Assembly: GCA_964016885.1 (NCBI GenBank)
Contig: OZ024757.1
Location: forward strand, 41,044,001 to 41,108,000
DNA length: 64,000 bases
From: Eledone cirrhosa
Taxonomy: Eukaryota
Direction: 5' to 3'
Shown: piece after piece, positions 4,320-37,652 of the stretch
Position numbering within the stretch: the first letter of the stretch is position 1
Layout: every line of letters begins with the position of its first letter
The notes under the pieces: generated by a model
Told to the model about the DNA's origin: nothing
The model's database searches: none
Seen by the model: only the letters and a program-made list of their open reading frames with translations
Made by a program: the position numbers and the translations under genes

Positions 4320-4505
4320 AAATCCCAGTGGAAAAAAGACACAGTAGAGGAAGACTATGAAAAACGTGGGTGGAGGTGGTGAGAGCTGACCTCAGAACAC
4401 GGAAGCTCACGGAGGAGATGACGAAGGACCCTGACAAGTGGAGAGAGGCTGTGCTGAATAGGACCTGTAAGCAGGGAAAAGCGGATGTATCATCATCATC
4501 ATCGG
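4320..4505 (+). mobile_element. RTE-like LINE 3' fragment (GAT-tailed family)
   Basis: Homologous to 5095-5430; degenerate IPVE...KTWVEVVRADLR. Confidence 0.75.
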
Positions 4506-4575
4506 ACAGCCTCCAAAAGTAATGGTTGTATTTTAAAGGGTACGTCAAACCTATTTGTAAAACTGTTATATATTG

Positions 4576-4640
4576 TATTTTGTCTGATGAAGGCATACCA
4601 TAATTTAATGTGGTATCCCTGAAATATGTATAATGAAATA
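4576..4640 (+). ncRNA. Type-I minimal hammerhead ribozyme (family B)
   Basis: Stem I tattttgt/atgaaata; CTGATGA 4584-4590; stem II agg-c-atacca/tggtat-c-cct; GAAA 4621-4624; stem III atatgtat; predicted AUA cleavage. Lies in island ~4515-4770 ending in (TA)n. Confidence 0.8.
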
Positions 4641-4768
4641 AATATGGTTTTATAAATATAGTTTCCATTTATTAATATCGTATTTTTACTCCAAAAATTT
4701 GTCGAGTGCTTTATATCAGTTATAAAAATATTTACTTGTTGTATCCCAACAATTTTAAATAGAACATT

Positions 4769-4805
<37 letters not shown>

Positions 4806-4868
4806 TCATCATCATTTTACGTCCGCTTATACATATTTTTATATATATGTACAAATATATATATATAT

Positions 4869-5073
4869 CCCTTTAGCATTTATGTTACTCTATATATACT
4901 ATTGTATTTTCATGGTAAAGGCTTTATCTCATATAATATGGAATCTATGAGATTTTGATATTATTTATTTTGATAACAATACCTTAACATCAGTATGAGT
5001 GGGCCCGTTACGGCCACTCATGCTAATGAACAGAAAAAAGTGAGAGAATTCAGCCGGTTTACATGCTAGAGGG
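4869..5073. mobile_element. TTAA-type (piggyBac-like) MITE, family E
   Basis: TIR ccctttagcattta / tacatgctagaggg, right-side TTAA; homologous to 13303-13508. Confidence 0.7.
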
Positions 5074-5094
5074 TTAAATATATATATATATAAT

Positions 5095-5430
5095 GACCAA
5101 GCATAGATGAGTTGAGAGAGGAACTGTGTATAAAGAGGGATAAGTTGTAGTGTGCAGGAGAGAAGACTGAGATGGTATGGATATGTAATGCGCATGGAGG
5201 ATAACCACTGGGTAAAGAAGTGGCAAGAAATCCCAGTAGAAGGAAGACTCAGTAGAGGAAGACGACGAAAAACATGGGCGGAAGTGGTGAGAGCAGACCT
5301 CAGATTACTGAAGCTCACAGACGAGATGACGACGGACTGTGACAAGTGGAGGGATGCTGTGCTGAATAAGACCCATCCCACCCTCGCAAGCAGGGAAATG
5401 CAGATGTAAAATGATGATGATGATGATATA
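5095..5430 (+). mobile_element. RTE-like LINE ORF C-terminus with (GAT)n tail
   Basis: ORF 5152-5409 RRLRWYGYVMRMED...EGRLSRGRRRKTWAEVV matches the typical RTE C-terminal RW.GHV.RM...RGRP..W pattern; ends in gatgatgat. Confidence 0.85.
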
Positions 5431-5784
5431 TAGCCGTTGGATATCCTACATACACAGATCTAAATCTACTAATATTTTGGTAATAAAATCAATGTTACTG
5501 GTCTGGGAATATTTTCTTCTGTTTATACAACCTTAATTTGAAACTAACTAAACAAATATATAAATCAATAAAATATTAAAATATGACCAAAAATAAAATA
5601 AAACAAAATAAAATTAAAACAAAATGAAATAAAAATAAAATAGAATAAAATAAAATAAAATGAAATAAAAACAAAAATGTATGAATAAAACATGGTTTTG
5701 TTTTCAAATTTTCCATCAAAGTTTATAGTTGTAATTATTAAATGAGACTCCCAAAACAAAAGAGTGCTTCGTTATATTTCATTT

Positions 5785-6320
5785 GTGTTGTTGTTGTTGT
5801 TGAGGTTGTTGTGGTGGTTGTTGCAGTTGTTGTTGGTGCTGTTGCTGTTGTTGATGTTTTTGATGAGGTGGTTCTTGATGTTGTTGCTGTTGCTGTTCTT
5901 GATGTTGTTGTTGATGTTGCTGTTCTTGATGTTGTTATTGCTGTTGCTGTTTTTGATGTTGTTGTTGATGTTGCTGTTCTTGATGTTGTTGTTGATGTTG
6001 CTGTTTTTGATGTTGTTGTTGCTGTTGCTGTTCTTGATGTTGTTGTTGCTGTTGCTGTTCTTGATGTTGTTGTTAAGGTTGTTTTTGGTGATTTTTGTCA
6101 TGGCTGTTGTTGCAGTTGTTATTATTGATGCTGTTGTTGTTGTTGAGGTTGTTTTTGTTGCGGTTGTTGATGTTCTTGCTATGTAGTTGATGCTGTTGTT
6201 GTGGTTTGAAGTTGTTTTTGAGGTTGCTGTTGCTATTGTAGTTGTTTCTGTTGTTGTTGCTGTTGTTGCTGCTGTTGTTTTTGTTGCTGTTGTTGCTGCT
6301 GTTGTTGTTGTTGATGTTTT
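5785..6320. repeat. (GTT/GCT/GAT)n degenerate trinucleotide array
   Basis: Directly visible, with a 27-bp higher-order period. Confidence 0.9.
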
Positions 6321-6529
6321 AATTAAACAAATGAAGACAAAACTATCGATTTCAGTTTCCTCTAAATAGTTATTTTAGTAAAACAAGACAACGAAACATT
6401 GATGAGCTGGGTAATTTGGATGCAATCAGATCAGTGTTAATGGCGTTTTGTTTCACAGGATTTCTCTGGAAAACCATTATGAATACAAAGTAATTGGACG
6501 AGTTTACTCTACACACAGGCACAGCAATA

Positions 6530-7145
6530 CTTGTACATGCAGATATACCCCCACACATCGACTGTACCAGCACAGATATAGCCACACACATACACAGATA
6601 TAACCACACACATACACAGATATAACCACACACAGACATATACCAGTACAGACATAATCCCACATAGAGACACACCAGCACAGGTACACAGATATACAGG
6701 CACACACAGATATACACACACAGACACACGCCAGCACAGATTTGACCATACACAGACACACACATATGCCCAATCACAGATACACAGATACACAGGCGCA
6801 CACAGATATACACACAAACACAGATATACCCACACCCAGACACAGATACACCGACACACAGACACAGACACACACACCAGACACACACACCAGACACACA
6901 CACCAGACACAGATATACCCACACATAGACACACACCAGCACAGAAATATCCACACACAGATTCACAGATAGACAGGCACACAGATATACCCACACACAA
7001 ACATATACCAGCACAGATATACCCACACACAGACACACATACAGAGATATACACACACAGAGGCACAGATAAACATATACCAGCACAGATATACCCACAT
7101 ACAGACACACACCAACACAGTTATACACATACACACACACACACA
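6530..7145. repeat. CA-rich minisatellite
   Basis: Repeated cacagatatacccacacac/accagcacag units. Confidence 0.85.
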
Positions 7146-7172
7146 TAAAAACAGATATATTACCATATCATT

Positions 7173-7363
7173 TAATTGTTTCTACTTTTGGCACAAGGCC
7201 AGCAATTATCTCAGTGAATTACTGGTACTTTATTTTATCGCACCCGTAAGGATGAAAGGCAACGTTAACCTCAGCGGGATTTGAACTCAGATCATAAAGG
7301 GCCATAACTCTATGCTGTAAAGCATGGTGTCTGACGCTCTACCGATGCTGTCAATCCACTGCC
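7173..7363 (-). mobile_element. tRNA-derived SINE (MetaSINE-like core), full length
   Basis: Reverse complement of A box tggattgacagcatcgg, B box gagttcaaatccc and core gcctttcatccttacggg...gataaaataaagtaccag; about 20 copies in the window. Confidence 0.85.
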
Positions 7364-7772
7364 CTTCATATAATATAATGTTATTTTATGCTGTAACATG
7401 TAAATAGATTGGTACTTTGGTAGAGTTGTTGGTGTGTTGTAATAAATAATTGTTTCAACATTTGGCACAAGACTAGCTATTACCCCAGTGTATTACTGGC
7501 ACTTTATTTTATCGACCCCATTAGGTTACCTCCTTACCATGCTGTGAGCTCATCCAGTGTGAAGATGTTTCTTGAAAACATCCATGTCCATAACATGCAG
7601 ATCTCTCAAAATTTCTTTGCAGCTTGTTGAAGAGTTGAGGTACTTTGAACCCCAGGCTATTGTAATATCTGCTCCTTATATATATTATATATATATATAT
7701 ATAGAGAGAGAGAGAAATGGTCGCATTCTTTAAGGGTATGTCAATATTTATTTATAAAACTGCTCTATATTA

Positions 7773-7837
7773 TATTTTATCTGATGAAAGCACACCATAA
7801 TTTAACTTGGTGTCCTTGAAATATGTATAATGAAATA
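7773..7837 (+). ncRNA. Type-I minimal hammerhead ribozyme (family B)
   Basis: Stem I tattttat/atgaaata; CTGATGA 7781-7787; stem II aag-c-acacca/tggtgt-c-ctt; GAAA 7818-7821; AUA site. Island ~7715-7960 with ttgagtgc at 7891 and microsatellite flanks. Confidence 0.82.
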
Positions 7838-7955
7838 AATATGGTTTTATAAATATAGTTTCCATATAGTATTTTTACTCCAATAATTTGTTGAGTGCTT
7901 TATATCAGTTATAAACATATTTGCTTGTTGTATCCCAACAATTTAAATAGAACTT

Positions 7956-8013
<58 letters not shown>

Positions 8014-8599
8014 GTGACATACGGTCAATAAGTGAAGCAAAAACACCAACACAGTACTACTACTACCACCACCACACACCACCACGTCCACCACTACTAC
8101 TACTACCATTACCCACATCATGTATTGTTCCTCACTCCCATTCTTTAAAATTTGGTAGTCACAGCAACAGAGATAGCAACTCTTTGACAAAATGCCAAAT
8201 CACCAACAAATTTTGTCAGTTCAATAATTATTTCATTCTAATTAAATCCCTCTCCCCACCCCACCCCTACCCACCCAAAAAGGAGAGAAAAATATGTAAC
8301 AATGCTAAAATGTGAAGAGTAGGAAATGTTTCGGTTGTAGTTGAGGTTACAGTGTTACACTGATAAGGTAGTAGTGGAGCTGGTACTGTATTAATTAATA
8401 TAGGAGCTGGCAAATTGGCAGAGTCTTTAGAACATCTGATCAGCAATAAGTCTATTTAAATATGCAAATGATATGCATGATGATTTTGGTCAACAACGGC
8501 TCCACCAGCTGCAGGTCTTTATTTTTTTTCTCTTTCTTTTCTGAAGTGAAGAAAAAAAAATGGAATATAAACTGCCAAATTGAGGTTCCTCCAAAGGGT

Positions 8600-9460
8600 T
8601 TTAGAGTAATATTACTTAACAGAGTGTGTAGGTTAGAGATTAAAGAGTCACTCCAGATAGAGCCGCTACTTCTCTGAATTGAGAGATCACAGCTCTGATA
8701 CTACAGAGATGTGGTTAGAATGTCTGAGGAGAGAATCTCTGAATTGAGGGATCACAGCTCTGATACTATGGACATGTGGTTAGAATGTCTGAGGAGAGAA
8801 TCTCTGAATTGAGGGATCACAGCTCTGATACTACAGAGATGTGGTTAGAATGTCTGAGGAGAGAATCTCTGAATTGAGGGATCACAGCTCTGATACTACA
8901 GAGATGTGGTTAGAATGTCTGAGGAGAGAATCTCTGAATTGAGGGATCACAGCTCTGATACTATGGACATGTGGTTAGAATGTCTGAGGAGAGAATCTCT
9001 GAATTGAGGGATCACAGCTCTGATACTACAGAGATGTGGTTAGAATGTCTGAGGAGAGAATCTCTGAATTGAGGGATCACAGCTCTGATACTATGGACAT
9101 GTGGTTAGAATGTCTGAGGAAAGAATTGCTGAATTGACAGATCACAGCTCCAATACTATGGATGAGTGGTTAGAATGTCCCAGGAAAGAATCGCTGGACA
9201 GATTTTACAGGCAAAACCAACCGGCAGGTGACCCAGGGATAGACCCCGAGCAAGATGTTTGGATAACATCCATGAGATTGGCCGGTTTCGCTTGGGGAAT
9301 CCAGCCAGATCAGTTGGAGTCGGTTGCTTCTGACAGGACCTGCTGGAAGGAGTGTTTGAGGACTCTGCCCCCATGACCCTCTCAGGAATAAGTGGGCAAA
9401 GAAGAAGAAAAAGAAGAAGAAGAAAAAGAAGAAGAAGAAGAAGAAGAAGAAGAAGAATAA
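8600..9460 (+). mobile_element. RTE-like LINE 3' fragment (GAA-tailed family) containing a tandem array
   Basis: Degenerate SQL.YYGHVVRMS.ER...AKPTGR.PRDRPR; (GAA)n tail ~9400-9457; reverse homologues at 49510-49815 and 14900-15025. Confidence 0.75.
8671..9185. repeat. 65-bp minisatellite, about 8 copies
   Basis: Unit starts at 8671, 8736, 8801, 8866, 8931, 8996, 9061. Confidence 0.95.
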
Positions 9461-10406
9461 GAGAGATCACCACCACTCCACCCACCCACAATCTATGTAT
9501 TTCAGTGTTATTACATATCCTTTATACATCTCACATTATTGCTCCAATAGCTACACACAAGTTTATGCTTCACTGATGAGGTGTAAATAACAACATGAAC
9601 CTAAAAACTTCACCGCACCTGAATTGTCTTAAATTTACTGAAATAATTACTGTTATATAAAATATAGAATTTTCTGCATATTTTTTTTTTTTAGCATCAT
9701 TTCGTTTTTTGCTACTTTTTTTGAGTTTGTTTCGTTATTTTCCTGCTATTTTTTTTTCCTGGTGTTTTTTTTTTTTAAGCTTTGTTTCGTTTTTTCCTGC
9801 TAGTTTATTTTTTTTTTTTTTGGTTTCCTGCAGTTTTTCTTTTAGTTTTGTTTCGTTTTTTCTTAGTATATATATATATATATATTTTTTTTTTTTGGGG
9901 GGGGGGGAGGTCCTGCTGTTTTTTTTTTAGCTCCATCTCGTTTTTTCCGCCTGTGTTTTTTTATTTCGTTTCGTTTATTCTTGCTGTGTTTTTTTAACTT
10001 CGATTCGTATTTTCCTGTTATGTTTTTTTATTAGTATCGTTTCGTTTTTTTTCCTTCGTTTTTAGTTTCGTTTCGTTTTTTCCTGGTCTATTTTTTTGTT
10101 GTATAATAATTATTTGCAGTTAGATTTAATGCCCTCTGCATTAAAGGTTAACACTGAGTTTACTTTTGAGGTTTTTATTTGGGCTGTTTTTTTTTATTTT
10201 AATTTTTGTATGTGTGTGTTTTATGTGTGTGAGTGCATGTGGGTGTATGTGAGTTTATGTGTGTGTATATATGTATGTATGTGTGTATGTGTGCATCTGT
10301 GTGTATATATATGTGTATCTTTATGTGTATGTATGTATATATATATATACATATATATATATATCATCATTCATAAATATATATATAGATATATATATAT
10401 AAATAT

Positions 10407-10445
<39 letters not shown>

Positions 10446-10589
10446 TATATATACATATATATATTATAAATATATACATACATATATAAATACATACATA
10501 TATATATACATACATACATATATAAATACATACATATATATATACATACATATATAAATACATACATATATATATACATACATATATAA

Positions 10590-10673
<84 letters not shown>

Positions 10674-11114
10674 TGTGTATATGTATATTTATTTGTGTGT
10701 ATTTATTTTATTATTTCATGCTAATACCATTATGAAATTATTGGTAGAAAAGCTTTGATGATCAAACATCTCGCAATTGACACACTTTACTGCACAAATG
10801 TGCAATAAAATAAATATTTTCCCACTTATCATCATCATCAGCAGCCACATCATCATATCATACCATCATCATCATCATCATCATCATCACTGCCATGCCC
10901 AAATTATATCATCATCACAACCACCAAAACTACCAGCACCTTCATCATCATCATCACATCATCAATATCATCATCACTATTATCATAATCATCATCATCA
11001 TCATCATCATCATCGTCATTATTAATATTATTGTCACATCATCATCATCATCATCTCATCATTATCATCGTCATTATCATCATCACCCCCACCATCATCA
11101 TCACCATTATCATC

Positions 11115-11146
<32 letters not shown>

Positions 11147-11442
11147 CACCACCAACACCATAATTATCATCATCACCATCATCATCATCATCACTGTATA
11201 TATAATCATTATTCATGTCAGTTGTTGTACCAATGACACAGGTCAACAGTTAACTTAACAGTCATCTCACCAGAGAGACACAAAAACATAAAACAATAAA
11301 ATAATGTCTGCTATTATTTCCAATCACCTTCTTTAGTATTTGGGTCAAAGGTTACCTTTGTTGTTGGTTTACAATAATTCCAGCCAACTCTGCTTCACTA
11401 AAACAACTTTAAACAGGAACGTCACTATATGTAACATACATT

Positions 11443-11875
11443 CTCCAGCCGCAACCTGGTGCAGTCTGTGACTAACCCAGGTTCTGCTGCACGTCGGACT
11501 GAGGAGGCCAAACTCTTCAAATACTGGTCGCTCTCCGACAGGTTTGCGGTTGTACCCTTGACAGTGGAGACTTTGGTGTCCTCGGCCCTAGGGCTATCTC
11601 CCTACTCACCACTATAGGCGCTGAGCTGGCCAGCCGCAGGTGTGAGCCTCGCGAGTTGGAATGGCACTTCCAGCGTGTCTCCCTTGCCGCGCTCCGGGGA
11701 AACACCTTCTCTATTCTGTCCATCGGGGCTGTGGGGAAGCCACCAATATGATTGACTGACTTGTCATTTTATCAGTCAGATGTTTTTAGACATCATCCAC
11801 TGCCACTAGACTGCTATGTATTTTTTAATTGACCCCTATTTCATTGATCACTATTTATCGAATTGCTAAGTTACC
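11443..11875 (+). mobile_element. 5'-truncated CRE/R2-like non-LTR retroelement (REL endonuclease C-terminus, frameshifted)
   Basis: Manual translation PGSAARRTEEAKLFKYWSLSDRFAVVPLTVETL/GVLGPRA...EPRELEWHFQRVSLAALRGNTFSIL, stop at 11749-11751, one frameshift near 11576; flanked by ~50-bp direct repeats. Confidence 0.8.
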
Positions 11876-11995
11876 TGCAACAAACCAGTTCTGCTTCACT
11901 AACACAACTCAGGAACGTCACTATATGTAACATACATTGTTTGTTTCTAGCCATGATATCAAACATAGGATTGACAATATACCATATAATAATAA

Positions 11996-12117
11996 TAATT
12001 GTTTCTACTTTTGGCACAAGGCCAGCAATTACCCAGTGCATTACTGGTACTTTATTTTATCAACCCCATAAGGATGAAAGGCAAAGTTAATCTCGGCGGG
12101 ATTTGAACTCAGATCAT
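11996..12117 (-). mobile_element. tRNA-derived SINE, 5'-truncated
   Basis: Same family as 7173-7363. Confidence 0.85.
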
Positions 12118-13032
12118 ATAATAATAATGAGGGAAGTGAATAGTGTATGGGTCATGTATATCATGACTCATACACTATTCACTTCCTTGACATTTGTATA
12201 TTATTCTATGTACTATACATGCATCTTTGATGAGTTGTAGTGCACCTGAGCACTGTACACAATAATTTCATTATTATTATTATTATTATCTATCTCTCTC
12301 TCCCTATCTCTCACACCTGTGTGTAGCCAACTCTGTGCCAATGGTGGTAAGTAAGGAGTTGGTTCTAGGGCCAAGGACACCAGAAATCTCCCCTGTTACA
12401 GGAAAACAATTGTGAATCCAGTTCACTTACCACTAAATATGTACACCAATGAAATAAAATGTCTTGCTCAAGGAGAGAAATCCCTTCATCCCCTCACATC
12501 ACCCGGTCAGCAATTAAACACACAACCTCACAAGTGTAAATCTATCTCCCCTAACCACTAAACCACTCACATACTTTCATATTTGATGAATAGAACTGAA
12601 ATTATTCAAAACATTTAATGAAAACCAATATATGAAAGAAAGAGAAAATGTGAGAATATCCGTGATTTTAATGAGAGGAGACAGACTCGCCTATCAAATA
12701 TCGCAAATGTTCGTATAGCCGACACCTTTTGAAATCAAATCATAGCATTATTTCTAGAGGGATATAGATTAAACCTGACAAACCCAAGACTTTACCATTA
12801 CTGCCAGGGCTTGATTTAATTGGGGAGGGGGCAATTACCCCAAGCCCCTTGCAGTGTGGGACCACACTCTTGCAATTTATTTGTGCCCTCTGCTGGGCTT
12901 TTAATTTTAGGATGGTTAAAGTTTTTGAATTTAGTGTAAAACCCTACTGTCCCTCTCTATTATATTATTCCCTTTTTGTTGGCCCTTGTGGCAAATAAAA
13001 AGGAATAATAATAATAATTATTATTATTATTA

Positions 13033-13240
13033 GGCAGTGGATTGGCAGTATCGGTAGAGGGTCAGATGACCTGCTTTACAGCAAAGAGTTACGGCCCTTT
13101 ATGGTCTGAGTTCAAATCCCACCGAGGTTAACTTTGACTTTCATCCTTACGGGGTTGATAAAATAAAGTACCAGTAATGCACTGGGGTCAATCTAATTGA
13201 CTTTCCCTTTCCCCAAAAATTGTTGGCCTTGTGCCATTAG
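13033..13240 (+). mobile_element. tRNA-derived SINE, full length
   Basis: A and B boxes plus core. Confidence 0.85.
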
Positions 13241-13302
13241 CAGAGATTAAATGTGTAAGCAAACAATTTCTGCTTTTACATATCAGTTTAGATTATTCTT
13301 AA

Positions 13303-13508
13303 CCCTTTAGCATTTACACTACTCTATATATACTATTGTATTTTTGTGGTAAAGGCTTTATCTCACATAATATTGAATCTATGAGATTTTGATATTGTTT
13401 ATTTTGAACAATACCTTAACATCAGTACGAGCGGCAAGCTACAACCAGTTTAAACAGAAAGAGGTGAGAGAATTCTGGGTGGATATGGCCGGTTTAAATG
13501 CTAAAGGA
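13303..13508. mobile_element. TTAA-type (piggyBac-like) MITE, family E
   Basis: TTAA|ccctttagcattta...taaatgctaaagga|TTAA. Confidence 0.8.
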
Positions 13509-14277
13509 TTAAAGAAGAGTTAAGGGACATTATTTGTTCATGACCTGGCCTTAAATACTGTCTCAGTCGGATGGGTATTGAAAATTGTATAGAAAAAAGT
13601 CTTTGTAAAACAGCTGCTTCAAAACAACAAGGATGGTGATGATGGTGATGATGATGATAATGATGATGAGGATGATTATGATATTTTGTGTGCAATTTTC
13701 AATATGAATTCACCTGACTGCATCATTTAAATTGTAATACACCAGTTTGTTGAGGAAGAAAATCACGATATAAAAAAAAACAAAAAAAAACTTACAATCT
13801 TTTATCATCAGCTCTCCAAAGAAAAGTGGATATGATTTCAATAATTTAAGAATTAGGAAAAAATTACTAATTATCATTCCTGCTCCAGGTAGAAAACCTC
13901 ACCTTTGCTAAACAGGATTACGTCCAACAAAGGTTGATTTTTTTCCCCATAAGCATGACAATTAATAGTTTTTCCATACAAATAATTCTTAATTTCCTGG
14001 AATTAACCCCACGCGAATTATCCTCATTTAAAAGTGCCAAGCAATTGAAATTAACAGCAAACTTATTAGAATTCTACCACTCTTCAGCTACCAAAGGAAA
14101 GGCTGTATTCTTTGGTAAACAAAATATAGAAAGTTTGAAAAAATATTGTTTCCGGCAAATTAATGGTTCAAAAATTATAAGAATTATAGAATTGCAACCT
14201 TCTGAAAAAAATAGTTTTGAAAATATAAAGAAAACGAAAAGGTATTGCAATTAGTTAATAAAAACAAAATTTATTAA

Positions 14278-14509
14278 CCCTTTTGATGGCAAACTAATCA
14301 AAATTGGTTCTGCTTCTATGAAACAAAACCATCAATTTTCAATGATTCCTATTTGAATTAAGAAACACCAACATAAATTTAGATGAGAACTATATATTGA
14401 CTCACCATCTAAGTAATGAAATAATTAATCATTTTAGTAAATCCCTCAAGAGACTTCATTAATTAATTGAAATAGAGTCTATTTAATTAGAAATAAGGTA
14501 ATGAAAGGG
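14278..14509. mobile_element. Second TTAA-flanked MITE
   Basis: TTAA|cccttt...aaaggg|TTAA; related fragments at 28300-29040 and 29625-29830. Confidence 0.55.
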
Positions 14510-14901
14510 TTAAGCTACAATCATATTACAGCTACTGTGACATCAACATAAATACTGTCTATACATGTATTCCAGAAATATTTCTCACCATGGGCAGCTG
14601 ATTGCTAAGGTAATAAAAACAGTTTTATAGATTTTAGGAGGTTCATATTTTTCTTTTTTTTTAACTATATGATATTATAAAACTTAGTAAAGCAGTTTCA
14701 TTAAAGATTCATTGAAAATTTCCCCTCATTTTTCACTTTTTTTTTATCAGATTCAACTTGGACTCGCTCTTATCTTCTATAATTTTTCATTTTTTTTAAA
14801 ACTATATGATATTCTAGGACGTGGTAAAGTAGTTTCATTGAAGACTCATTGAAAATTTCCCCTCATTTTTTCTTTTTTTATCACATTCCACTTGGACAAA
14901 C

Positions 14902-14932
<31 letters not shown>

Positions 14933-15605
14933 CTTCTCCCCCCTCTTCTTCTTCTTCTTCTTCTTCACCCAGTTATTCCTGAGAGGGTCGTGGAGGCAGA
15001 GCCCGCAAGCATTCCTTCCAGCATGGAAAGTAGTTTCATTTTAACATGGTAAAGTAGTTTCGTTTAAACTTTTGTCTGTCATACTCATTTTTCAGTCATA
15101 GGAGAGAGTTTATATTTGGGTTAAGGAGCATAATTTGGTCTAGACAGATCGAATGTTGAGTGAGAATTTATCTTCCTTTGTAGATTTTCTTTTCTTTACA
15201 TATTTCACAGCATCTCATTCTTCAAGAGATGACTGTACATTTACCAATAAGTACATACATTATTTAATAAATGTTTCTTAAAGTCAACCAACATCTTTCT
15301 ATAACTAGGATTTCCGCTCATATGATTTCTGTATCCCGAGATGCTGTGCATATAATATATAAAATACTTACATATATATATGAATACTTACATATATATA
15401 TGAATACTTACATATAATATATATATGTGTGTGTGTATATATATATATACATATATATATACATAAATGTATGTATGTATATATATATACCATCATCATC
15501 ATCAAATATATAGCAACTGATCAACATCTTCCGGAATTTTAACAATAATATATATAAAAATAAAAGAACACCTTTATGTTATCAGCTTGACTGACATGTG
15601 TATAT

Positions 15606-15691
<86 letters not shown>

Positions 15692-15789
15692 ATATAGATA
15701 GAACATCGATAGATAGATGGTTAGGTGATAGGTAGGTTGTGAGGAGTTTGAGTCTCGGATCAGTTGATACAGTGTGTCCTTAAGAAAGA

Positions 15790-16314
15790 CACAGAAGAAG
15801 AAGAACGCAAAGAGAAGAAGAAGAAGAAGAAGAAGAAGAAGAACGCAAAGAAGAAGAACGCAAAGAAGAAGAAGAACAAGAAGAAGAAGAAGAACGCAAA
15901 GAAGAAGAAACGCGAAGAAGAAGAAGAAGAAGAAGAAGAAGAACGCAGAGAAGAAGACGAGAAGGAAGAAGAAGAAGAAGAAGAACGCAAAGAAGAAGAA
16001 GAAGAAGAAGAAGAAGAAGAAGAAGAAGAAAAGAAGAAGAAGAAGAAGAACGCAAAGAAGAAGAAGAACGCGAAGAAGAAGAAGAAGAAGAAGAAGAAGA
16101 AGAAGAAGAAGAAGAAGAAGAACGCAGAGAAGAAGAACGCAGAGAAGAATAAGAGAAGAAGAACGCAAAGAAGAAGAAGAAGAGAACGCAAAGAAGAAAA
16201 AGAAGAACGCAAAGAAGAAGAAGAAGAAGAACGCAAAGAAGAAGAAGAAGAAGAAGAAGAAGAAGAAGAAGAAGAGAAGAAGAAGAAGAAGAATGCAGAG
16301 AAGAAGAAGAAGAA

Positions 16315-16358
<44 letters not shown>

Positions 16359-17471
16359 GGAACGCAGAGAAGAAGAAGAAGAAGAAGAAGAAGGAAGAAG
16401 AAGAAGAAGAAGAAGAAGAAGAAGAACGCAAAGAAGAAGAAGAACGCAAAGAAGAAGAACGCGAAGTAGAAGAGAAGAAGAAGAAGGAAGAAGAAGAAGA
16501 AGAAGAAGAAGAAGAAGAAGAAGAAGAACGGCGAAGAAGAAGAAGAAGAAGGAAGAAGAAGAAGAAGAAGAAGAAGAACGCGAAGAAGAAGAAGAACGCA
16601 AAGAAGAAGAAGAAGAACGCGAAGAAGAAGAAGAAGAAGAAGAAGAAGAAGAAGAAGAAGAAGAAGAAGAAGAAGAAGAAGAACGCAGAGAAGAAGAACG
16701 CGAAGAAGAAGAACAAGAAGAACAAGAACGCAAAGAAGAAGAAGAAGAAGAAGAAGAAGAAGAAGAAGAAGAAGAAGAAGAAGAACGCAAAGAAGAAGAA
16801 GAAGAACGCAAAGAAGAAGAAGAAGAAGAACGCAAAGAAGAACGCAAAGAAGAAGAAGAAGAAGAAGAAGAAGAAGAAGAAGAAGAAGAAGAAGAAGAAG
16901 AAGAACGCAAAAGAAGAAGAAGAAGAAGAAGAAGAAGAAGAAGAAGAAGAAGAAGAAGAACGCAAAGAAGAAGAAGAACGCAGAGAAGAAGAACGCGAAG
17001 AAGAAGAAGAACGCAGAGAAGAAGAAGAAGAAGAAGAAGAAGAAGAAGAAGAACGCAGAGAAGAAGAAGAAGAACGCAAAGAAGAAGAAGAACGCAAAGA
17101 AGAAGAAGAAGAAGAAGAAGAAGAAGAAGAAGAAGAAGAAGAAGAAGAAGAGGAACGCAGAGAAGAAGAAGAAGAAGAAGAAGAAGAAGAAGAAGAAGAA
17201 GAGGAACGCAGAGAAGAAGAAGAAGAAGAAGAAGAAGAAGAAGAAGAAGAAGAAGAACGCGAAGAAGAAGAAGAAGAAGAAGAAGAAGAAGAAGAAGAAG
17301 AAGAAGAAGAACGTGAAGAAGAAGAAGAAGAACGTGAAGAAGAAGAAGAAGAACGTGAAGAAGAAGAAGAAGAAGAAGAAGAAGAAGAAGAAGAAGAAGA
17401 AGAAGAAGAAGAAGAAGAACGCAAAGAAGAAGAAGAAGAAGAAGAAGAAGAACGCAAAGAAGAAGAAGAAG

Positions 17472-17500
<29 letters not shown>
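15790..17500. repeat. 1.7-kb (GAA)n array with recurrent cgca/cgcg/cgtg interruptions
   Basis: Directly visible; source of the spurious 376-590 aa ORFs. Confidence 0.95.
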
Positions 17501-17502
<2 letters not shown>

Positions 17503-17774
17503 TAACGGTTGTTTACAAACGGTATATGATAAATAGGCAATAATTGTTATGTGGGAATCGGCATAATTGAACGTTGTTTGTCCCAGAAACCGGAAATTGG
17601 TAAAATAAATTCAGAAAAAAGAGTACATATCTTCTGGTATTGCTTTCATAATATTATTCTGACAAATGGCTGATAACTTTCAGAAAGTCGGTACATTGCG
17701 TAAAAATATATAAAATAAAACAAAATAACATTTCATGCAGCATATTTCAGGGTAAAACCCACTTTTCAAATGTG

Positions 17775-17824
<50 letters not shown>

Positions 17825-17827
<3 letters not shown>

Positions 17828-18061
17828 CTCATAATATTAAGTTCATATGTAGATATGTCACTATCTGAATACCAAATATTGTGTTTTATCTGACGATAGC
17901 GTATCAAAATACAGGTGCGCTAATAAAATAAATATGGTTTTATAAAGATATTTTCCATTTATTAATATTATTGATATCATACTACAGAAGATATCTGTTG
18001 AGTGCTTCTAAACTGTTATAAATTAACTTTGTTGAATAATCAACAAATTAAATAACTCATT

Positions 18062-18065
<4 letters not shown>
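17825..18065 (+). mobile_element. Family-B-related island with decayed HHR
   Basis: tgttttat CTGACGA tagcgtatc/ggtgcgcta ataaaata: GAAA and stem III deleted; ttgagtgc at 17998; (TA)n on both sides. Confidence 0.65.
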
Positions 18066-18103
<38 letters not shown>

Positions 18104-18363
18104 CTCACGGTGGAGATGACGAAGGACCGTAACATTTTTCACTAATAGCTATCCAATCACTCCACTTCAAAATTCTTTTTTCTATATCTCTATGGATGCT
18201 TGACTGTTTGTTCTGAAAGATGTTCTGCTTAAATAGTTGCAATGTTAATGAAAAACTGGTTTTATTTACAAAAATATGAAAAAAATTATTCTTACTTGTC
18301 TTAGTTTTTCCTTTTCCTTTCATTTTCTGACGTCGAAATCAACATTTTCTCATATTTACGCTG

Positions 18364-19467
18364 TTACAGTTTGTTCAAAAGAATGCTTTTGATGACAACA
18401 TTCTTAGTTGACTGGGTATCCTTCAGAAACACTCAAACATTTTCTTTTCGTTTTCCGCGGCTAATGGCTACATACAGTTGACCGTGTTGGAATACAGGTC
18501 GTTCCAGATAAACCAAGACGTTTACCATTTCTTTTGGCAACATAATTTCCTCATTTTCAGTTTTTTTTATCTTATCTTCTCCAATATCCAATAGGAACTG
18601 TGAATAGTCTCCTGCTCCCCCACCCAATCGCCTGTTTGTCTTCAACTGAAATCTTTTGAAGCTTCGCCATAAGTAGGATTTCCCCTTTTCACTACCGGAA
18701 GAAGCTGACGGAAATCGCCACAGTAAATTGTTAAAATTCCACCGAATGTCTCATTGGTCAACAGCTTCGAAGCTTTCCCTTCGAATGTCTCATTGGTCAA
18801 CAGCTTCGAAGCTTTCCCTTCGAATGTCTCATTGGTCAACAGCTTCGAAGCTTTCCCTCCGAATCATAGGACACTCATCCCAAACAATCAACCTTGTATG
18901 CTGGAAGAGGTTTGCCGTCTTTGAGTTTTTATCAATGTTGTACAGACCATTTTCTTTCACTACTATCGGTATTTTGAACCTAGAATGCGCTGTTCTTCCA
19001 CCAGGCATCAGTGTTGCGGCAATGCCAATGACGCAACAGCAATAGCCATGACACCGTTTCCCCTGACTTTTGAAAGAATTAAGTTAATCAGGAATGTCTT
19101 TCCTGTTCCACCTGGAGCGTCAATGACTGTTACAAACGAAGTCGTACACGTGTTTTTGTTCACTCTTCAATAGAGGCTCTGTCTCTTCTACAAATCGTCG
19201 CTGCTCTTCTCTTGTGTAATGCAATTCATGCAATAACTCCAAATTGCCAATATCCTGATTAGCAACAATATTATTTGGCCTTGGCAAGTTAAAGTCACTA
19301 AGACTTTTGCCCAGGTCGTTAAGTTTGTCTTCAAAATACAGAAGACATTGATCATAATGTCTCTTGCTAATCAAACGGCTAGAATTTCTGGTAGCCCTTT
19401 TTTCTATTTGAAGGTAATCTTCAGACAGCGAATGCTTAAATCGAACCCTTAAAGCTGGAATTGTCAA
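18364..19467 (-). pseudogene. Helitron Rep-Hel PIF1-family helicase fragment (frameshifted, internally deleted)
   Basis: Motifs on the minus strand: DAPGGTGKTF (Walker A), GIAATLMPGGRTAHSRFKIP, IVWDECPM, GDFRQLLPVV, VFQHGQLYVAISR, TKNVV. Confidence 0.92.
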
Positions 19468-19493
19468 TTTCTGTATTTGTGAGGAGCACTCGA

Positions 19494-19678
19494 TGGATTG
19501 GCAGTATCGGTAGAGGGTCGGATGTCATGCTTTCCAGCACCGTTACGTCCCTTTACGATCTGAGTTCAAATCCCGCCGAGGTTAACTTTGCCTTTCATCC
19601 TTACGGGGTCGATAAAATAAAGTACCAGTAACGCACTGGGTTATTGCTGGCCTTGTGCCTAAAGTAGAAACAGTTATT
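19494..19678 (+). mobile_element. tRNA-derived SINE
   Basis: Same family; lies next to the Helitron fragment. Confidence 0.85.
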
Positions 19679-20561
19679 GTTTACTTTAACAGCAGCATTG
19701 ACTCGAAAGAAGATTTGATTTTCCTCAGGTAGATGAACTTGAAGGCGAACTACGGCGGGTTCCCTCTCATGAATTGGAAATCCAAGTACTAAGGCAACAA
19801 ATATTCTGTTTAAAGAAAGCCGAAATATATATACTCAGTGTACAAATAATTTGTATTTTTTAAGTCATTTTCACTTAAGAATATTTTTTAAATATGCCAA
19901 GAAATATTTTTTTCCATCGTATTCACACGAAAATAATTTTTAAAAAATAAAGATATTGTCTATGTAAATAAAGCTATTTGTGAAATCAAATTCACTTTAA
20001 AATATTTCTAAATAATTGAAATATTCTTTTTAACTAAAGCAAAAATATAAACACCTACTGTTTAACACCAACTGGTATTTTTCAGCGATGTTCACTTAAT
20101 GCTATCGTCTGTTTAAAGAAAGCTCAAATATAGATACTTGCAGTACAAACAACTTGTAGTTTTGAAATCATATTCACTGAGAAATCACTGAAAACTCTTT
20201 TTTTAATAATTATTAAAATATTTCTCGAATGATGAAAATAGTTTATGTCGATTTACGTCAAACTTGTTTAATCCCCATTTCAGGGTTATATCACTTACAG
20301 CGCTATTTCTCCATTATGCACCGTTTTGGCTATTTACGAGGGTATCCTACACACACATACACACATGCTTCTAAGTATGTAAACACATGCACTGGCACAC
20401 ACATGGTGGCAGTATAACTGTGAAAGAGAGAGAAGGAAATAACGTTATGGATAGGGGGAGAGTTAAAATAAATAAAAGTTAAGGACGTTGTGTCTTTCTG
20501 TCATCCCCCCTCTCTCATCCTCTCACTCTCTCTCTTTCTCTCTCTCAGCCTCACTCTCTCT

Positions 20562-20873
20562 GGCACTGGTTGCTTCTCAGCAAGCAGTGAACCCCGCCTA
20601 TACTTCCTCCCGTCGTTTATATCCGTAAAGTGACTAAAGATTAAAAACAAATGTAATATATTTAGAGTTAAGGTTAGTTTTTAGAGTTAGGGTTAGGGTT
20701 AAGGTTAGGGTTAGGGACGAACTAAACATACAGAGAATAAAAAAATTGAACAGAGAAGAAAATTATTGCGATTTCACTTTACGGATATAAACGACGGGAG
20801 GTGCTATAGGCAGGGTTCACCGCTTGCTGAGACGCAAACTTTCACTTTTGACAGACAATAACAAACCAGTGCC
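20562..20873. mobile_element. MITE with long TIRs and internal (TTAGGG)-like repeats
   Basis: Ends ggcactggtt/aaccagtgcc; ~58-bp subterminal inverted repeat 20575-20633/20774-20832; ttagggttaggg at 20687-20716; inserted in a (CT)n tract. Confidence 0.85.
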
Positions 20874-21413
20874 CTCTCACTCACTCTCTCTTTCTCTCAC
20901 TCACCCTCACTCTCTCTTTCTCTCTTTCACCCCCTCTGGACAACCAAAAAACAAATGGATTATTTCTTTCGATATTCATTATAAAATAAAATAAATTGAA
21001 TTTAGATGAATTCTTTGTTATTTTTGGAAAATTGTAAATATTGTCCAAGTGCGATTTACACCAAACTTGTTTTATTCAGAGTATTTTCTCATTATGCAAT
21101 GTTTTGGTTATTTACGAAGTTTTGCAAGGTTATGTTAATTTCGGGGTATTTTCCCAGTATGCACCGTTGTGGCTATTTACGAAGGTACCCCCAAAACCCG
21201 CGAATCTCGGGAACCCGGGTTCAGATTTTCGCGAAACTTGTTTTATTCAATTTGTATTCCCATTTCAGAGGCAACTTGCTTTCAAAGTATTTACCCATTA
21301 TGCGCCCTTTTGGCTGTATTACATAACAGACAAGCAAGCAAGCACGCAATATCAGATAGATAGATAAGATTTCAGTCATCATCATCATCGTCATGATTAT
21401 TACTATTATTATT

Positions 21414-21603
21414 TGAATTAGTAGTATCGGTAGAGGGTCGGACGCCATGCTTTGATGCATAGAGTTACGGCCCTTGCCATTCTGAGTTCAAATCCCTCCG
21501 AGGGTAACTTTACCTTTCATCCTTACGGGGTCGATAAAATAAAGTACCAGTATTACACTGGGTAATTGCTGGCCTTGTGCCAAAAGTAGAAACAATTATT
21601 ATT
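21414..21603 (+). mobile_element. tRNA-derived SINE
   Basis: Same family. Confidence 0.85.
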
Positions 21604-21675
21604 GTTGTTACAATGTCTGGAAAATATATTTCATCTCTATAGAGGCCAATGGCTTTTTTTTTTATTATATACTAC

Positions 21676-21708
<33 letters not shown>

Positions 21709-21958
21709 TTAAAGGTTAAACAAGGTTCAATGAATAAATCAAAGAATAAAGTTTTACAATAGATTAGAAGCACTCCACAAATATGGTTTTCCGGAGTTAT
21801 TAATATTAATTCAAAATATTAACAAATTTTCTGTATTATATGTAATTTGTTCATGTCTCAATCTTAAGGTATATAAATATTGAGTTTTGTCATAACTTAT
21901 TCACTGCCATGACTGAATTTTAACCATCTACTTAGTCAGGGTATGTCATACATCATCT

Positions 21959-22025
21959 TATTTTATCTGATGAGGACGTACTGTTGAAGATAGCTCAGTA
22001 CCTCTGAAATATGTGTAATAAAATA
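21959..22025 (+). ncRNA. Type-I minimal hammerhead ribozyme
   Basis: Perfect stem I tattttat/ataaaata; CTGATGA 21967-21973; stem II gga-c-gtactg/cagtac-c-tct; GAAA 22006-22009; GTA 22015-22017. Lies in (TA)n-flanked island 21708-22064. Confidence 0.85.
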
Positions 22026-22059
22026 TCACACGAATGTCTATTTTTGTTAATATTTTGAA

Positions 22060-22124
<65 letters not shown>

Positions 22125-22149
22125 TTACACATATATACATATATATATA

Positions 22150-22308
22150 TCCAACTGATAAGGTATGATTTTCATGGGTATGTCTCTATTTATAAAACAA
22201 ACTTTGTATTTTGTCTAAAGAAAGCGTACCAAAGTCTTTTGGTACCCTTGAAATATATATAATAAAATAAATATTGTTTTATAAATATTGTTTCCATTTA
22301 TTTAATAT

Positions 22309-22313
<5 letters not shown>
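22150..22313 (+). mobile_element. Family B island with core-mutated HHR
   Basis: CTAAAGA (22215-22221) in place of CTGATGA; stems I and II intact; GAAA 22250-22253. Confidence 0.7.
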
Positions 22314-35999: not shown

Positions 36000-36267
36000 T
36001 CATATGTACACACACACACACACACATTTATATATATATATATGTGTGTATATATGGATCTGTGTATGTATGTACATATCTATATATATGTGTATCCTTA
36101 TATCTGATGTAACTTTTCAGATCTATTTAACTCTGTTACATATTTATCCTAATGGACTTCTCCCGAAACAGTTGCCAATTACATAACATTGTTAATTGCT
36201 GAGTGAGCTCATTATTTGATTTGGGCACATGTACAGAACTGTCAGAACATATTGCATTAAATATCCT

Positions 36268-37652
36268 AATCATCATCATCATCATCATCATCATTGTTTT
36301 TTCTGTCTGTTTTTCCATGTTTGCATGGGTTGGATGGATCTTATTCAGCATAGCAACTCCCCACTCTGCGTGTTCCTTCATCATCGCCTCTGCGAGTCTC
36401 AGTGATTTGATATCAGCTCTCACAACCTCTGCCCAGGTCTTCCTTGGGCTACCTCTACTGTGGCTTTCATCTCCTCACTCTCCATGCTCCTTCAACAATA
36501 TCCTCTGTGAGTCTCAGTGATTTGATATCAGCTCTCACAACCTCTGCCCAGGTCTTCCTTGGGCTACCTCTACTGTGGCTTTCATCTCCTCACTCTCCAT
36601 GCTCCTTCAACAATATCCTCTGTGAGTCTCAGTGATTTGATATCAGCTCTCACAACCTCTGCCCAGGTCTTCCTTGGGCTACCTCTACTGTGGCTTTCAT
36701 CTCCTCACTCTCCATGCTCCTTCAGCAATATCCTCTGTGAGTCTCAGTGATTTGATATCAGCTCTCACAACCTCTGCCCAGGTCTTCCTTGGGCTACCTC
36801 TACTGTGGCTTTCATCTCCTCACTCTCCATGCTCCTTCAACAATATCCTCTGTGAGTCTCAGTGATTTGATATCAGCTCTCACAACCTCTGCCCAGGTCT
36901 TCCTTGGGCTACCTCTACTGTGGCTTTCATCTCCTCACTCTCCATGCTCCTTCAACAATATCCTCTGTGAGTCTCAGTGATTTGATATCAGCTCTCACAA
37001 CCTCCGTCCGCATCTTTCATGGGATAATTCTACTGTGTCTTGCATTTCTCTACTTGCCACATTCCTTCATCATCCCCTGTGGGAGTCTCTGTGATTTGAT
37101 ATCAGCTCTCACAACCTCTGCCCAAGCCTTCCTTGGACTAACTCTACTCTGGCTTGCAGCTCTCCCCTCTCCAAGTTGCTTCATCATCCCCTGTGTGAGT
37201 CTCTGTGATTTGAGGTCAGCCCTTACCACCTCTGCCCAGGTCTTTCTTGGTCTAACTCAACTATGGCTTGCATTTCTCTACTTACCATGTTCCTTCGTCA
37301 TCTCCTCTGTGAATTTCACTTTGCTCTTACAACTTCTACCCAGGTTTTTCTTGGTTTACCTATATTAATGTGGCTTGTATCTCTCCACACTGAGCATTTC
37401 TACATCATCTCTGAGTCTCAGTCATTTGAAATTAGCTTCCTCCACCTCTGCCCAGATTTTTATTGGTCTACCTCTACCAAGACTTCCTTCCATTGAGATT
37501 TCCTGGCATTTCTTCACCCAACAATCATCATTCATGTGCATCACATGTCCATACCAAGACAATCTTCTCTCTTGTACACCAGCTCAGATACCTCTAAAAC
37601 CCAGCTTCTCCCTCGGTTATTCCAAGCTCTGCCTTTCTTTCACATTTACACC
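36268..37652 (-). mobile_element. RTE-like LINE 3' fragment with an internal 115-bp tandem array
   Basis: (CAT)n tail at 36268-36293; five near-identical 115-bp units (~36393-36985) grade into diverged units; LINE sequence resumes at ~37440-37650. Confidence 0.85.

Follow-up and report, generated by a model that had tools for sequence, protein, structure and literature searches.

The window analysed here, a stretch of 64,000 nucleotides from Eledone cirrhosa (assembly GCA_964016885.1, contig OZ024757.1, forward-strand positions 41,044,001 to 41,108,000), contains four related hammerhead ribozyme repeats, which belong to a Hydra-clade Penelope-like element (PLE), a retrotransposon, and lie in its pseudo-long terminal repeat (pLTR). 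The explanation favoured here, with confidence somewhat above even, is that these are type I hammerheads whose stem II is likely kept paired by selection, and that the unpaired cytosine at position 4 of this stem likely makes a base-specific contact rather than being a product of decay. The tens of thousands of copies of this element, divided into many subfamilies, amount to a natural mutagenesis, which singles out the unpaired C and a conserved 5′ hairpin as positions under selection and gives exact mutations that can be tested. The fixed cytosine is an oddity open to test, the fresher lead being the 5′ hairpin.

The hammerheads are located on the plus strand at 4576–4640, 7773–7837, 21959–22025 and 22207–22269 of the window (copies 1 to 4). 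In copy 1, stem I is made of residues 4576–4583 and 4633–4640, the core CTGATGA occupies 4584–4590, GAAA 4621–4624 and the palindromic stem III 4624–4631, and the cut is predicted to follow A4632 (AUA). Its stem II (4591–4620) comprises 3 bp, the C4594–C4617 mismatch and a further 6–8 bp. The corresponding stems are found at 7788–7817 in copy 2 (core 7781–7787, mismatch C7791–C7814), at 21974–22005 in copy 3 (core 21967–21973, mismatch C21977–C22002) and at 22222–22249 in copy 4 (mismatch C22225–C22246). All four are preceded by CTGATGA, which reads CTAAAGA at 22215, and are followed by GAAA-TATRTRTA-ATRAAATA.

A preliminary description of this stretch, made from the sequence alone, had treated the four repeats as copies of one “family B” ribozyme. 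The type I core, consisting of CUGANGA, GAAA and an NUH triplet (here AUA), is intact in three of them, while the core at 22215 carries a G5 to A change, and copy 4 is hence a decayed one. The four stem II sequences quoted in that description are exact, and the paired double substitutions that it reported do preserve the helix: pairs 1–3 and 5–10 are formed in every window copy (36 of 36 cells, one of them G-U), with double changes at six pairs (2, 3, 5, 6, 9 and 10). Its statement that the loops vary freely does not hold for all copies, as the variation runs between subfamilies and the stem II loops of 4591 and 7788 are nearly identical (TAATTTAATG vs TAATTTAACT). An Rfam scan gave no hammerhead family among the best 150 of 386 matches, a list that is filled by microsatellite-driven miRNA matches.

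The genome that was searched (3.0 Gb in 1,796 contigs, rich in TA repeats) contains 43,120 copies matching the exact hammerhead pattern with stem II left free, and the reversed-pattern control gave 0 matches in every pattern search. The 5′ ends of the copies vary, their 3′ ends fall at two fixed points preceding (TA)n and an inverted partner is frequent, and the 5′ truncation, inverted partial copy and one-sided tail known for PLEs are all present. In longer loci, those of the copy 1 subfamily included, the motif lies ~1.3–1.5 kb 3′ of an open reading frame (ORF) for a reverse transcriptase (RT) and endonuclease (EN). In tandem copies the ATG of this ORF follows ~240 nt past the hammerhead core, and at several loci a pLTR is followed by an ATG and an ORF open for 500+ amino acids, with the identical pLTR type found also 3′ of the ORF. 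This arrangement, an ORF with RT plus a GIY-YIG-type domain at its C-terminus placed between pLTRs, is that of PLEs.

The translations of the ORF carry RWR, DKT, CNCRNKSNC (CxCx5C), CDLC (CxxC) and CKH (CxH), and its Atlas neighbours carry RVT_1 and GIY-YIG. The RWK-like, DKT, CxCx5C, CxxC and CxH motifs together with (TA)n targeting are those of the Hydra clade, an assignment resting on motifs and on comparison by eye with Hydra reference proteins. The ORF itself has no Pfam family (0 found) and no PDB sequence match, which counts against this identity. Neptune was considered as the identity of the element and was dropped, as the motifs fit Hydra.

Pairing in stem II was assessed in 101 copies gathered blind to it, from loci matching the stem-II-free pattern. 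In these, 749 of 808 cells pair (695 Watson-Crick and 54 G-U), the remainder being 30 A-C and 29 other combinations. The covariation found in the window persists in the larger alignment, which is composed of 19 hand-chosen subfamily representatives (one per stem haplotype and the window copies). In this set 97.8% of the stem II cells pair, as opposed to 93.4 ± 0.5% after shuffling (0/500 shuffles), and 22 cells show double changes vs 6.8 ± 1.9 (0/500), although such shuffle-based measures are inflated by the relatedness of the copies. The number of pairs having a double change, 6 vs 4.4 shuffled, is not significant (65/500). All three helices of the type I form, in which stem I is the open one, are present in the same representatives, stems I and III being 100% paired and stem II 94.7%.

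A rough tree built from the flanks only, with 143 of 250 distinct copies, bears on the same question. Mismatch-deviant picks (except for the C-A subfamily, which was kept), second copies per locus and copies without the upstream motif were dropped from it. Changes common to at least two copies kept the pair in 18 cases and broke it in 6, and private changes kept it in 29 and broke it in 34 (Fisher p = 0.018). The first stem II pair (10.1–11.1) is A-U in 58, G-U in 28, A-C in 9, G-C in 4 and U-U in 2 of the 101 copies, and the existence of A-C and U-U subfamilies indicates that this pair is loosely constrained. The A-C is seen at loci L061, L063 and L068 (AGGC...CCCC), which belong to a young abundant subfamily, and the U-U at L150 (UAGC...CCUU). 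At L253, L257 and L265 a part or the whole of stem II has been deleted from between the two halves of the core.

The compensation might instead have arisen at the DNA level, through a switch of template from one arm of an inverted repeat to the other, since stem II is near-palindromic and the element forms many inverted junctions. This origin is hardly credible: repair of this kind would close the C-C first, and yet the mismatch persists in 40,230 copies. Moreover, G-U intermediates occur as whole subfamilies, which is expected from selection at the RNA level and not from DNA hairpin repair, and on the sense strand G-U exceeds A-C by 54 to 30. Judged from the sequences, stem II is likely kept paired by selection on the element RNA. 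That the structure was selected in the source elements had been proposed from the four window copies, which are insufficient on their own, and it is the genome-wide data that support the proposal. Such covariation is expected for hammerheads of the PLE class and is hence unsurprising; PLE hammerhead families rich in compensatory changes have already been published (Cervera and de la Pena 2014, PMC4209133).

The C-C mismatch at position 4, initially described as constant, is present in all four window copies. Genome-wide it is common but not constant: among 46,276 matches with matched flanks, 40,230 (87%) have C-C, 3,638 have the 5′ C opposite A, G or T, and 2,408 have another base at the 5′ position. 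About half of the 100 listed matches with C opposite a non-C base represent one short-loop C-A subfamily. A C-G pair is seen in only 207 of the 46,276 matches, and among the 100 of these listed it is scattered over all subfamilies. The copies with a 5′ non-C base are scattered as well, and T, found in 18 of the first 30 listed, is the commonest decay at this position. In the 101 unbiased copies position 4 is never paired (C-C 93, C-A 4, U-C 3, C-U 1). No sampled subfamily alters the 5′ C or closes the mismatch, and the rough tree gives 0 shared and 7 private changes for the 5′ C.

Modelling of 12 stems shows that a G on the 3′ side, forming a closed C-G pair, would add 2.3–6.7 kcal/mol, and ~6 kcal/mol in 9 of the 12. 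The mismatch could then be a thermodynamic brake, the weakened stem II sparing enough uncut RNA for copying. The inserted copies do span the cut site and must therefore derive from uncut RNA. Nevertheless, a brake appears quite unlikely, as the modelled energy of U-C is within 0.3 kcal/mol of that of C-C in 10 of 12 stems, making it an equal brake, and it would arise by the commonest mutation, but no subfamily carries it. That U-C costs no modelled energy and still characterizes no subfamily fits a base-specific contact better than a simple brake.

The C-C could also be an ancestral accident, left uncorrected owing to the rarity of transversions and the relatedness of the subfamilies. Few transversions are shared on the tree, and one C-to-A change has spread. 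On the other hand, transitions at both cytosines have never spread in spite of the CpG context, while a neighbouring G-to-A change in a CpG context has spread together with its compensation. The internal branches of the flank tree total ~5.8 substitutions per site, a rough value inflated by alignment noise. An accident is improbable in view of these observations.

A doubtful, though less remote, proposal is that the C-C (or C-A) bulge serves as a mark recognized by the element protein or a host factor and plays no role in cutting. The 5′ C and the A-U and C-G pairs beside it keep their base identity, in contrast to the covarying pairs 1–3, 5 and 6. Catalytic hammerhead mutants of Poseidon_Ac left insertion in vitro unchanged (PMC11167929), which makes non-catalytic roles of hammerheads plausible. 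However, the mismatch is absent from the published Hydra hammerhead rows examined (PMC8557442, File S2), indicating that it is not a clade-wide signal.

Several observations weigh against a selected contact at position 4. The young C-A subfamily represents one shared change on the rough tree, and the 0 shared vs 7 private changes at the single 5′ C site are not significant alone. Shared transversions are rare (~3–4 of 30), so the lack of a fixed C-G carries little weight when taken alone. Pair 7 of stem II is as invariant as the 5′ C. No partner was found for this base in the 101 copies, where the stem I bulge base varies (G, A, U), and the 8-bp stem I forms to a modelled extent of 0.00 to 0.91 in a long context. 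The simplest reading of the sequences is still that selection acts on the identity of the 5′ C, suggesting a contact with RNA or protein. No literature was found on a C-C mismatch in hammerhead stem II, and a single added stem II pair can reduce the activity of a pseudoknotted hammerhead (PMC3088659).

If the C makes a base-specific contact, the mismatch would limit the core-proximal helix to 3 bp and would leave the cytosine free to dock on the long stem I, which runs alongside stem II in the folded hammerhead. With the mismatch closed, the helix would be a rigid one of 10–14 bp. Cutting is predicted to take place in a dimer, after AUA, owing to the palindromic stem III (AUAURUAU), which reads AUAUGUAU or AUAUAUAU in almost every aligned copy and fits the dimer-type hammerheads of PLEs. 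By analogy with PMC4209133 and PMC6765202, dimer-dependent cutting is probably slow, given that pair 10.1–11.1 is mostly A-U or G-U and that full copies require an uncut RNA template. A search for genomic 5′ ends at the predicted cut site gave 249 matches vs 90 and 44 at control offsets. These give no evidence of a cleavage footprint, as 25 of 30 matches inspected are small indels with core remnants and 5 are true junctions. At loci L281 and L282 the ORF start is joined straight to the first base past the predicted cut site.

What is new in the finding is the 5′ hairpin, conserved at the start position that copies prefer; no publication on such a Penelope pLTR hairpin was found, judged by titles and abstract openings. 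In 78 of 101 copies an invariant TAYGTC lies 19–40 nt upstream of the core, and many of the remaining ones seem to be truncated or inverted before reaching it. In most complete copies it follows C|ACT(R) by 39–46 nt (112 of 199 motif-bearing copies have such a site). The hairpin has the form AC-URYC...(G/A)NUA-Y-GUC, and all 16 folded segments close one basal helix, U-R-Y-C with G/A-N-U-A, 15 of them in the minimum free energy (MFE) structure and one in the centroid. The z-scores of single segments range from -0.2 to -4.5. Between AC/GU and UA/UA, the variable Y would bulge out. The final C of UAYGUC is invariant and is not accounted for by this pairing.

In 21 aligned copies of the hairpin 84.3% of the cells pair vs 78.1 ± 1.5% after shuffling (0/500), and there are 18 double changes vs 8.0 (1/500). 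Compensatory changes comprise UAUCC/GGGUA, UAUCC/GGAUA, UAUUC/GAAUA and UGCC/GGUA (loci L020, L113, L163 and L180 included), and of 98 copies, 94 are paired at +4, 87 at +5 and 91 at +6, often as G-U. RNAalifold predicted no pairs on this alignment, and the support consists of the single folds and the counted pairs.

Two other roles of UAYGUC were tried and rejected. One, considered as the main cause of its conservation, is base pairing to the 5′ strand of stem II; this is strongly predicted only in GGAC subfamilies and some truncated folds, and changes at stem II positions 2 and 6 are not compensated. The other is that of a type III cleavage site, in which stem III could be formed but stem I fails after 1–3 pairs. 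Of 115 copy 5′ ends, 26 fall at -1 to +4 vs 64 spread over +5 to +73, and some ends called upstream are artefacts due to the reference. This accumulation at the hairpin suggests a transcript start, and the hairpin likely marks the beginning of the element RNA. Transcripts would then begin at the A of C|ACU, ~65–90 nt upstream of the core, and would fold the 5′ hairpin first. The YCACT at the copy start is presumably initiator-like.

The 3′ strand of the hairpin contains a donor-like G|GUAYGU at +39 to +45 from the copy start, present in 68 of 78 copies. The sequence ATCAG|TTATAAA, ~180 nt past it, is kept in 86 of 86 G|GT copies (4718–4722 of the window; loci L076, L180 and L184), and the AG of ATCAG is lost in 3 of 7 copies with a donor G to A change, which form one subclade and are not independent. 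It may be hypothesized that the pLTR is a two-part RNA switch, in which the 5′ hairpin hides the splice donor of a ~180-nt intron holding the whole hammerhead. Spliced RNA would shed the ribozyme and most upstream AUGs and make protein, while unspliced RNA, with cutting checked via the C-C site, would template new insertions. This switch is regarded as unlikely: 10 of 78 copies lack the donor G, and GGAC subfamilies carry the donor without an AG at the place of ATCAG. A search for spliced genomic copies gave 0 matches, which is uninformative because PLEs retain introns, and no skipping joint was seen in three contig runs of unspecified type. The evidence for an intron in these sequences is mixed.

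All four element copies in the window lie on the plus strand. Copy 1 (4505–4772) is a 5′-truncated 3′ end, consisting of pLTR and tail and followed by (TA)n, and belongs to a young subfamily, the top 40 scored genomic copies being 98–100% identical. Its TACGTC (4541–4546) is the 3′ strand of the 5′ hairpin and overlaps the donor-like G|GTACGT, the 5′ strand being truncated away. Copy 2 (7715–7960) is truncated, is of a different subfamily and has TATGTC at 7737–7742. Copy 3 (21860–22062, with an approximate 5′ boundary) represents the distant GGAC subfamily and retains an intact 5′ hairpin, AC-UGCC...GGUA-U-GUC, at 21903–21947 (MFE -10.6 kcal/mol, z -1.92). Copy 4 (22150–22313) is flanked by TA repeats and has TATGTC at 22179–22184.

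Twin tail hairpins, RCTCC...GAGY, are seen at 4688–4707 and 7877–7896 of the window and at 1500–1640 of locus L224 (minus-strand reading), each sitting a few bases past one of the two 3′ end points. The first of these in copy 1 (ACTCC...GAGT, 4688–4707, plus strand) lies directly past the shorter one. Copy 1 is flanked by fragments of another retroelement (4322–4500 and 4965–5459), with a LINE-type C-terminus that is ‘RGRPRKTW’-like, and similar fragments are found at ~36136–36520 and 36871–37368. The ORF fragments at 18433–19524 resemble a Helitron-type Rep/helicase. On the minus strand of locus L129 an intronless 516-aa ORF, which we take to resemble a UDP-glycosyltransferase, adjoins an inverted element pair.

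The Hydra clade of C-terminal EN+ PLEs, of which Hydra-1_Obim is an example, was described by Craig et al. 2021 (PMC8557442). The Eledone element shares with it RW(R/K), DKT, the CxCx5C linker, CxxC, CxH, (TA)n targets and inverted truncated copies, as well as a pLTR type I hammerhead with a short palindromic stem III. It differs in size, being ~4 kb long with a 3′ non-coding part of 1.3–1.5 kb, whereas Hydra elements are generally <3 kb, and in its tail of ~75–90 nt instead of 30–40 (PMC8557442).

Penelope of Drosophila virilis has an internal pLTR start, and 46 nt downstream of it lies a splice donor (Schostak et al. 2008, PMC2377424), similar to the donor-like G|GTAYGT located here 39–45 nt past the preferred copy start. 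The Penelope intron, however, ends at helix I (PMC4209133), while any intron here would have to contain the ribozyme. The Penelope promoter paper mentions no 5′ hairpin, the words ‘hairpin’ and ‘stem-loop’ having 0 occurrences in it (PMC2377424).

The function of PLE hammerheads is called unclear in PMC8557442, and in PMC11167929 cleavage is dispensable in vitro. In comparison with the metazoan PLE hammerheads of PMC4209133, those of Eledone mostly lack the conserved G10.1–C11.1 pair and have no extra base after A9 (between 9 and 10.1), both of which are features of the dimer type, and they possess an 8-bp stem I with a long extension. The D. virilis hammerhead has a bulge in helix II (PMC4209133), as opposed to the 1x1 C-C mismatch found here. 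Stem II of the Hydra rows of File S2 that were examined is 3–4 bp with a tetraloop, and that of Hydra-1_oBim is a perfect 7-bp helix with no mismatch (PMC8557442), while in Eledone it is made of 3 bp, the C-C mismatch and a further 4–10 bp.

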